Shown: positions 56,193-56,411, counted from the first letter of the stretch. The stretch is DNA of 64,000 bases from Escherichia coli (GCF_003334355.1 NZ_QOWP01000022.1), one strand, 5' to 3'. Program-made: numbers and translations. The notes: a model not told the origin generated them from the sequence alone.

Positions 56193-56227
56193 TGGTATAT
56201 CTCTGATGTAAAGTGAATGATAACGTA

Positions 56228-56252
56228 AACGAGAATGATTATTATAAAGATA
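56228..56252 (-). promoter_or_regulatory. fhuA: Fur box in the fhuA promoter
   Basis: Seen in sequence: minus-strand TATAATAATCATTCTC resembles the GATAATGATAATCATTATC consensus, about 40-60 bp upstream of the fhuA start. Confidence 0.55.
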
Positions 56253-56411
56253 AGATAATATTCGAAACGCTGGCGGGTTCGCAAGCGGTACGCAATCTGA
56301 GCGTTCCTGAAGGGTTAATAAACAACCAGATGAAAAGAAAGGGTTAATACTTTGGGTGGGATGTTATTTTACCGGATGGCAACTCGCCATCCGGTATTTC
56401 ACGCTTAGACG

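Follow-up and report, generated by a model that had tools for sequence, protein, structure and literature searches.

How does the mrcB transcript end in Escherichia coli, when the next gene downstream, fhuA, lies on the same strand and is regulated by iron? The stretch of E. coli DNA analyzed here (64 kb, the window) carries both genes on the minus strand, separated by an intergenic gap of 219 bp (56193-56411). The original prediction had placed two elements in this gap, a Fur-box-like palindrome upstream of fhuA and a perfect stem after the mrcB stop without a clear U-tract, and had proposed that the latter may act as an RNA stability element or Rho-dependent stop, insulating fhuA from mrcB read-through. 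The features considered are the following.

56412..58946, minus strand: mrcB (PBP1b) coding sequence, from the ORF list and the RefSeq annotation under the match
56370..56396, minus strand: mrcB 3' hairpin, a perfect 11-bp stem with a 5-nt loop and without a U-tract, proposed as a REP-derived protective 3' stem-loop from its structure, rarity, alignment, conservation, and ygiC copy
56293..56369, minus strand: untranslated C-rich, G-poor stretch, a candidate Rho-loading (rut) region as judged by its C/G bias
56310..56349, minus strand: two perfect 11-bp direct repeats of TATTAACCCTT (56349-56339 and 56320-56310; 29-nt spacing), from a repeat search
56255..56284, minus strand: fhuA sigma-70 promoter, with -35 TTGCGA (56284-56279), an 18-nt spacer, and -10 TATTAT (56260-56255), from a promoter scan
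56213..56249, minus strand: Fur operator, with its best 19-mer at 56231-56249, a 15-mer at 56230-56244, and the nearly invariant block ATAATAATCATTCTCGTTTACGTTATCATTCAC
53949..56192, minus strand: fhuA coding sequence (ferrichrome outer-membrane transporter), from the ORF list and RefSeq annotation

The mrcB stop is a TAA at 56414-56412 (minus strand). The 5' end of the gene was placed from K-12 164730-167264 via collinear mapping, and window positions (x) were converted to K-12 positions (K) as K = 167264 + (56412 - x). A 401-bp query across the gap found matches, with annotated mrcB and fhuA, in 5422 of 5426 complete E. coli genomes. Five positions of the gap (56410, 56356, 56354, 56351, and 56350) differ from K-12 MG1655 (NC_000913.3 167265-167483), and the hairpin, the fhuA promoter, and the Fur box are identical. 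Since all five differences fall outside these three elements, published K-12 data can be applied directly to the window.

The fhuA promoter and its Fur operator

Within the gap, the minus strand has a single sigma-70-like site, TTGCGA-18-TATTAT, and identical -35 and -10 hexamers were catalogued for the mrcB-fhuA spacer among the constitutive RpoD promoters detected by genomic SELEX (Shimada 2014, PMC3946193). Across 39 enterobacterial loci, the -35 CTTGC and the -10 TATTAT are conserved. The Fur box begins 6 nt downstream of the -10 and thus overlaps the start region of this promoter.

Considered purely as a motif, the Fur box is modest. The best 19-mer (CTTTATAATAATCATTCTC, 56231-56249, minus strand) agrees with the classical consensus GATAATGATAATCATTATC at 14 of 19 positions, a score also reached at five other sites in the window, and a second match (13/19) overlaps the best one with a shift of 6 nt. 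A strict 19-mer search allowing up to 3 mismatches returned zero sites in the entire window. The ChIP-exo-derived 15-mer TGAnAATnATTcTCA matches 56230-56244 (minus strand) with 2 mismatches; it has three matches in the window against 1.25 expected by chance, and 15% of the shuffles equal this number. The motif scan therefore places a Fur motif where it was expected, yet the score alone is not clearly above chance, and the original prediction escapes only narrowly the refutation set for it, a Fur score no better than background.

We judge the Fur box to be real because of published binding data and conservation, rather than motif score. A 19.5-bit, 31-bp cluster of three Fur sites at K-12 167439 was confirmed by gel shift (Chen 2007, PMC2189734); its center corresponds to window position 56237, at -45 from the fhuA ATG. 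A Fur ChIP-exo peak at K-12 167456-167468 (window 56220-56208) was assigned to fhuACDB, whose expression is fur-dependent, and fhuA was derepressed by log2 1.1 to 5.0 in delta-fur strains, with the value of 5.0 in W3110 delta-fur (Gao 2023, PMC10164565). Additionally, a fhuA promoter-lacZ fusion is repressed by Fur (PMC4676285), and the block ATAATAAT(A/C)ATTCTCGTTTACGTTATCATTCAC (56247-56213), conserved at 80-95% or more in the 39 enterobacterial loci, is the most conserved part of the gap. The palindrome predicted upstream of fhuA is thus a correct and already established operator. Within the Fur-repressed siderophore-receptor promoters of E. coli (fhuA, fepA, cirA, and fhuE), it occupies the same locus as the published fhuA operator and shows no difference from it, the modest match of the window site to the idealized 19-mer being implicit in the 19.5-bit score. 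When Fe2+ is present, Fur occupies the operator and blocks the initiation of fhuACDB, which is established. As the operator is textbook knowledge, its significance beyond annotation is small.

Other Fur-related sites were noted in the window. An intragenic Fur ChIP-exo peak (K-12/W3110 169031-169043; Gao 2023, PMC10164565) corresponds to window 54633-54645, inside fhuA, and another peak, at K-12 177012-177024 (window 46664-46652), adjoins a hairpin downstream of erpA. The best match to the Fur 15-mer in the window is the near-perfect palindrome TGAGAATCATTCTGA (one mismatch), located at 34079-34093 in the divergent gap between map and rpsB, 77-91 nt upstream of the map ATG (34170). In K-12 it corresponds to 189583-189597, where Fur ChIP-exo peaks were reported for both W3110 (189588-189600) and strain W and attributed to dapD-glnD-map; map was up by log2 1.28 in W3110 delta-fur (Gao 2023, PMC10164565).

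Upstream of the fhuA -35, some 60-100 nt before the likely fhuA start, lie the two TATTAACCCTT repeats. They are part of a block, CATCTGGTT..TTCTTAACCC, whose conservation extends over Escherichia, Citrobacter, and Salmonella and which includes a TTAAC (CATCTGGTT..TTAAC); TTAAC motifs recur in more distant genera. These repeats may represent a regulator site or an UP-like element.

The hairpin after mrcB and its relatives

The earlier description of a perfect 10-bp stem (about 56370-56397) is essentially correct; the arms found here comprise 11 nt each (56370-56380 and 56386-56396) and are 100% complementary. On the mRNA strand the hairpin reads UACCGGAUGGC-GAGUU-GCCAUCCGGUA and begins 15 nt past the mrcB TAA. 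The 61-nt stretch that contains it folds with -23.2 kcal/mol (z = -5.3), none of 200 shuffles being equally stable, and the hairpin is retained when the entire gap is folded. Perfect hairpins of this size are rare, as only two distinct ones of at least 11 bp occur in the 64 kb and Markov simulations expect 0.17 hits.

With its perfect 11-bp stem, the element has the GC-rich stem-loop expected of an intrinsic terminator. It does not have the U-tract of about 7-8 nt directly after the stem, because the first 8 nt (AAAAUAAC) of its 3' tail, AAAAUAACAUCC, contain a single U and a terminator scan of both strands at the hairpin gave no call. The absence of a clear U-tract had also been foreseen. Furthermore, an Rfam E-value scan of 55900-56700 matched no family, and a known sRNA or riboswitch at the gap was rejected on that basis. 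An 8-codon ORF, ATG GCG AGT TGC CAT CCG GTA AAA TAA (ATGGCGAGTTGCCATCCGGTAAAATAA, 56372-56398, minus strand), is probably meaningless, being without an obvious Shine-Dalgarno sequence, almost wholly contained in the hairpin, and missing outside Escherichia.

To place the hairpin among its counterparts, mrcB 3' ends from 80 species were compared. A locus was called terminator-like when 5 or more T in 8 nt came after a hairpin within 130 nt of the mrcB stop, with stems trimmed so that the T-run was not absorbed. Such a canonical hairpin with T-run follows mrcB at 59 of the 75 non-Escherichia loci, against 9% of random 130-nt segments of the window, and on this basis a 3' structure after mrcB is a conserved requirement. 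No hairpin with T-run was called at the four Escherichia loci whose downstream sequence was long enough, nor in the window. The canonical terminators, present in Citrobacter, Enterobacter, Klebsiella, Kluyvera, and others, occupy the same site as the E. coli hairpin, roughly 10-60 nt from the stop, with a similar stem stability. They consist of an A-tract, a GC stem, and a T-run (for example, AAAACCCGCTTCGGCGGGTTTTTCTTT in Citrobacter and CCCCCTTC..GAAGGGGG plus a T-run in Enterobacter), whereas the Escherichia hairpin has no T-run and a stem of unrelated sequence.

A different type of structure was found at the same site in Salmonella enterica arizonae and diarizonae, C. amalonaticus, and one other locus, where REP/BIME elements are located. 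Elements of this kind (Stern 1984) reportedly stabilize mRNAs (Newbury 1987) and are also said to act in attenuation (Espeli 2001). In the MAFFT alignment, the E. coli hairpin aligns with the fhuA-proximal REP of the Salmonella and C. amalonaticus BIMEs; its right arm and flank (GCCATCCGGTAA) are identical to those of the C. amalonaticus REP, and its left arm (ACCGGATGGCG) resembles a REP head. A AATAACAT(T/C)CCA block is shared just downstream of hairpin and REPs alike; it follows the E. coli hairpin directly, and in the species with REPs an insertion of 9-11 nt intervenes. The hairpin is an extragenic palindrome after a stop codon, with the CCGGATGGCG head motif, positionally homologous to the REP pair of Salmonella and C. 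amalonaticus and with the same presumed RNA-stabilizing role.

The hairpin differs from REP/BIME elements in several respects, since its stem is a perfect 11 bp and the REP stem is bulged, it has no CTTATCMGGCCTAC tail, its head departs from the consensus at three positions, and only two copies were found in E. coli. A search with the REP head consensus GCCKGATGNCGRCG allowing up to 2 mismatches did not include the hairpin among its matches (by eye, there are 3 mismatches, ACCGGATGGCGAGT), and the REP tail CTTATCMGGCCTAC (GGCCTAC) had no match within the mrcB-fhuA gap. True REPs of the window are located at 7565-7650 and 50108-50150, and NC_000913.3 has no REP or repeat feature annotated at the hairpin site. 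While REPs are highly repeated, the hairpin occurs at no more than three places per E. coli genome, with a median of one. From these sequence comparisons, we conclude that the hairpin has its origin in a single REP or in a REP pair that collapsed and is not itself a REP family member.

The second copy of the hairpin in K-12 is located at 3181589-3181614, in the 37-nt convergent gap between ygiC and ygiD, with identical 11-bp arms and a 4-nt loop; by the place counts, it is carried by under half of the E. coli genomes. One could go further and regard the 27-nt perfect palindrome TACCGGATGGC-N4/5-GCCATCCGGTA as an undescribed mini-repeat, a "collapsed BIME" that would have formed when an inverted REP pair lost its central part, would have spread by copying or conversion between two or more E. 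coli loci (the mrcB 3' end and ygiC/ygiD), and would have replaced in Escherichia the intrinsic terminator that other Enterobacteriaceae kept after mrcB. We put this idea forward as tentative and consider it doubtful; if true, it would represent a concrete, datable switch from an intrinsic to a Rho-dependent terminator. When metagenomes were scanned for the palindrome core, over 120 hairpins came up, most of them unrelated, approximately what chance and generic terminators give for 18 specified bases, and no wider family emerged; the E. coli-like matches were confined to the mrcB and ygiC/D contexts.

Within the species, 4850 of 5426 complete genomes carry the hairpin. Across 11 Escherichia haplotypes, none of the 22 stem positions varies, whereas the spacer, loop, and downstream flank vary at 13 of their 63 positions (one-sided Fisher p = 0.014), although in this small sample the stem displays only invariance and no covariation. 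The loop variants are GAGTT, GAGTA, GAGCA, and GAATT. In about 564 of 5422 genomes (10%), an insertion of about 5 kb between mrcB and fhuA, a chaperone-usher fimbrial operon with four genes, takes the place of the hairpin (e.g., strain DA33135; also E. albertii). Similarity to the window resumes in these genomes at about 56354, just past the hairpin, and the fhuA promoter and Fur box are kept at about 85% identity. There, mrcB is followed by a different strong U-less hairpin, GCUCUCCGC-UUAU-GCGGAGAGC (DNA GCTCTCCGC-TTAT-GCGGAGAGC).

The mrcB 3' site shows a lineage-specific replacement of terminator types, with intrinsic terminators in most genera, REP/BIME elements in Salmonella and C. amalonaticus, and a short perfect hairpin in Escherichia. 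This series at one locus, of intrinsic terminator, BIME, and U-less hairpin, together with the REP ancestry and the second copy with identical arms, is what can be considered mildly new here.

How the mrcB transcript would end

Protective 3' stem-loops on Rho-dependent transcripts have reportedly been hypothesized before (Peters 2012). More recently, Rho-dependent transcripts were found to end at steady state right after stable stem-loops that lack a U-tract, with rut-like sequence richer in C than in G just downstream and with PNPase and RNase II trimming back to the stem (Dar & Sorek 2018, PMC6061677). The mrcB hairpin is likewise stable, near the stop, without a U-tract, and followed by a stretch richer in C than in G. 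Two analogous hairpins behave exactly as this class predicts. For the ygiC copy, the primary 3' end in curated Term-seq data is K-12 3181617, only 3 nt past the stem, and the Rho region defined by bicyclomycin lies at 3181832, 215 nt downstream (Adams 2021, PMC7815308). The window's second perfect hairpin of 11 bp or more (46685-46711; AUGUGCCGGAUA-AAC-UAUCCGGCACAU) is located 10 nt past the erpA stop in the convergent erpA/yadS gap and has a CCGGAT..ATCCGG core and a U-poor tail. As for ygiC, the erpA 3' ends (K-12 176994/176995; window 46682/46681) lie 3 nt past the stem, and about 157 nt downstream, at 177151, a strong Rho region was reported with a score of 16.7 (Adams 2021, PMC7815308).

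Downstream of the mrcB hairpin, the RNA is untranslated for about 180 nt. The C/G ratio reaches 2.2-2.4 in 78-nt windows (56380-56283), and values of at least 2.2 are found in only 0.3% of 78-nt windows on the minus strand, although this bias may simply reflect the conserved fhuA upstream region, which is also present in genera with an intrinsic terminator.

We consider, with moderate confidence, that the hairpin is not an intrinsic terminator and is most likely a REP-derived protective 3' stem-loop of a Rho-terminated mrcB mRNA. RNA polymerase leaving mrcB would transcribe through the hairpin, Rho would load on the untranslated C-rich, G-poor RNA just downstream, and transcription would stop somewhere in the next 100-200 nt. 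The 3'-5' exonucleases (PNPase and RNase II) would then trim the RNA to the base of the hairpin, which would shield the mrcB mRNA from further decay. A testable prediction follows, namely, an mrcB (PBP1b) 3' end at about window 56367 (K-12 167309). The hairpin would then be one further example of the known U-less protective stem-loops on Rho-terminated E. coli mRNAs, and together with the Fur operator it would make two elements of conventional type in the gap, independent of each other.

The proposal of a stability element or Rho-related signal in place of an intrinsic terminator therefore fits the anatomy and the ygiC and erpA precedents, but the curated tables for K-12 166900-167599 list neither a Term-seq 3' end nor a bicyclomycin-sensitive Rho region (Adams 2021, PMC7815308); mrcB is weakly expressed, at about 60-100 units (Gao 2023, PMC10164565), and the fhuA promoter would mask read-through. 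The same tables do list a 3' end just upstream of mrcB (K-12 164636), so the neighborhood is not invisible to the method. The TERMITe supplements make no mention of mrcB or fhuA, and a literature search on the mrcB-fhuA terminator, intergenic region, and bicyclomycin found nothing specific to the hairpin. Because the curated tables contain no mrcB 3' end, we infer the function of the hairpin from its anatomy and its precedents.

Insulation of fhuA by the hairpin, as originally proposed, is not supported in the model that fits. Since Rho would act downstream, the hairpin would be the protected end of the trimmed transcript and not the stop, and hence not itself the insulator. We infer that mrcB transcripts end by Rho action and trimming and that mrcB transcription is excluded from fhuA in this way. 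In fur+ W3110, fhuA was expressed at 17-21 units and mrcB at 94-99 (Gao 2023, PMC10164565); the two genes being of similar length, read-through from mrcB into fhuA would be at most about 20%. Rho, a Fur roadblock, or RNA decay could each contribute to this low fhuA signal. For annotators, the implication is that the iron regulation of fhuA would rely on something besides an intrinsic terminator to exclude constitutive mrcB transcription.

Other explanations have to be weighed against a protective stem-loop. The hairpin could be a neutral relic of a decayed REP/BIME with no selected role, with mrcB ends being diffuse or stopped by Rho alone or by a Fur roadblock. This seems unlikely to us, even though the hairpin aligns to a REP found in sister genera and has lost the REP tail, has no 3' end in the Adams 2021 tables (PMC7815308), and is missing from the roughly 10% of E. 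coli genomes with the fimbrial operon at the site. The stem shows no variation, in contrast to its loop and flanks, and the identical-arm ygiC copy does define a 3' end. Moreover, the fimbrial-island genomes have another strong U-less hairpin and other genera have terminators, so that some 3' structure is always kept. A weak, non-canonical intrinsic terminator that stops some polymerases unaided, possibly with NusA or NusG, is quite improbable. Its very stable GC-rich stem does lie where other genera place canonical terminators, and transition states between intrinsic and Rho-dependent terminators have been discussed (Dar & Sorek, PMC6061677). Against this stand the tail AAAAUAAC, with its lone U, and the negative scan. 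Additionally, intrinsic terminators typically end transcripts 7-9 nt after the stem, whereas the ygiC and erpA 3' ends are 3 nt past it, with Rho regions downstream.

The palindrome could also act as DNA, as a site for gyrase, IHF, or a RAYT transposase or as the operator of an unknown fhuA regulator, which we regard as very unlikely. REP ancestry, a near-identical second copy elsewhere in the genome, and a position at the junction of an insertion/deletion polymorphism would agree with such a role, but the copies number only two, and they lack the GGCCTAC tail of REPs that RAYT transposases require. The location of the second copy in a 37-nt promoterless convergent gap argues against an operator, and the mrcB hairpin itself lies about 85 bp upstream of the fhuA -35. 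Finally, the hairpin might serve the plus strand and terminate antisense transcription directed from the AT-rich fhuA promoter region towards mrcB. A promoter-like site does exist on the plus strand (56217-56245), where the hairpin is preceded by TTATTTT and followed by ATTTCACG. This last possibility is nevertheless extremely improbable, given a plus-strand tail with 3 T in 8, a negative scan, no Rfam match, and no 3' end listed here on either strand in Adams 2021.

Upstream of mrcB, the hrpB-mrcB gap (59045-59130) contains two GGGAGAGGG/CCCTCTCCC hairpins with G-runs between them, which correspond to hairpin/G-quadruplex (HPGQ) repeats described at K-12 164569 and 164608 (PMC5100583). The Term-seq 3' end at K-12 164636 falls at window 59040, just after the second HPGQ hairpin and 94 nt upstream of mrcB. 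The HPGQ motif CCCTCTCC..GGAGAGGG also forms the stem of the mrcB terminator in Lelliottia, Leclercia, and Silvania loci.
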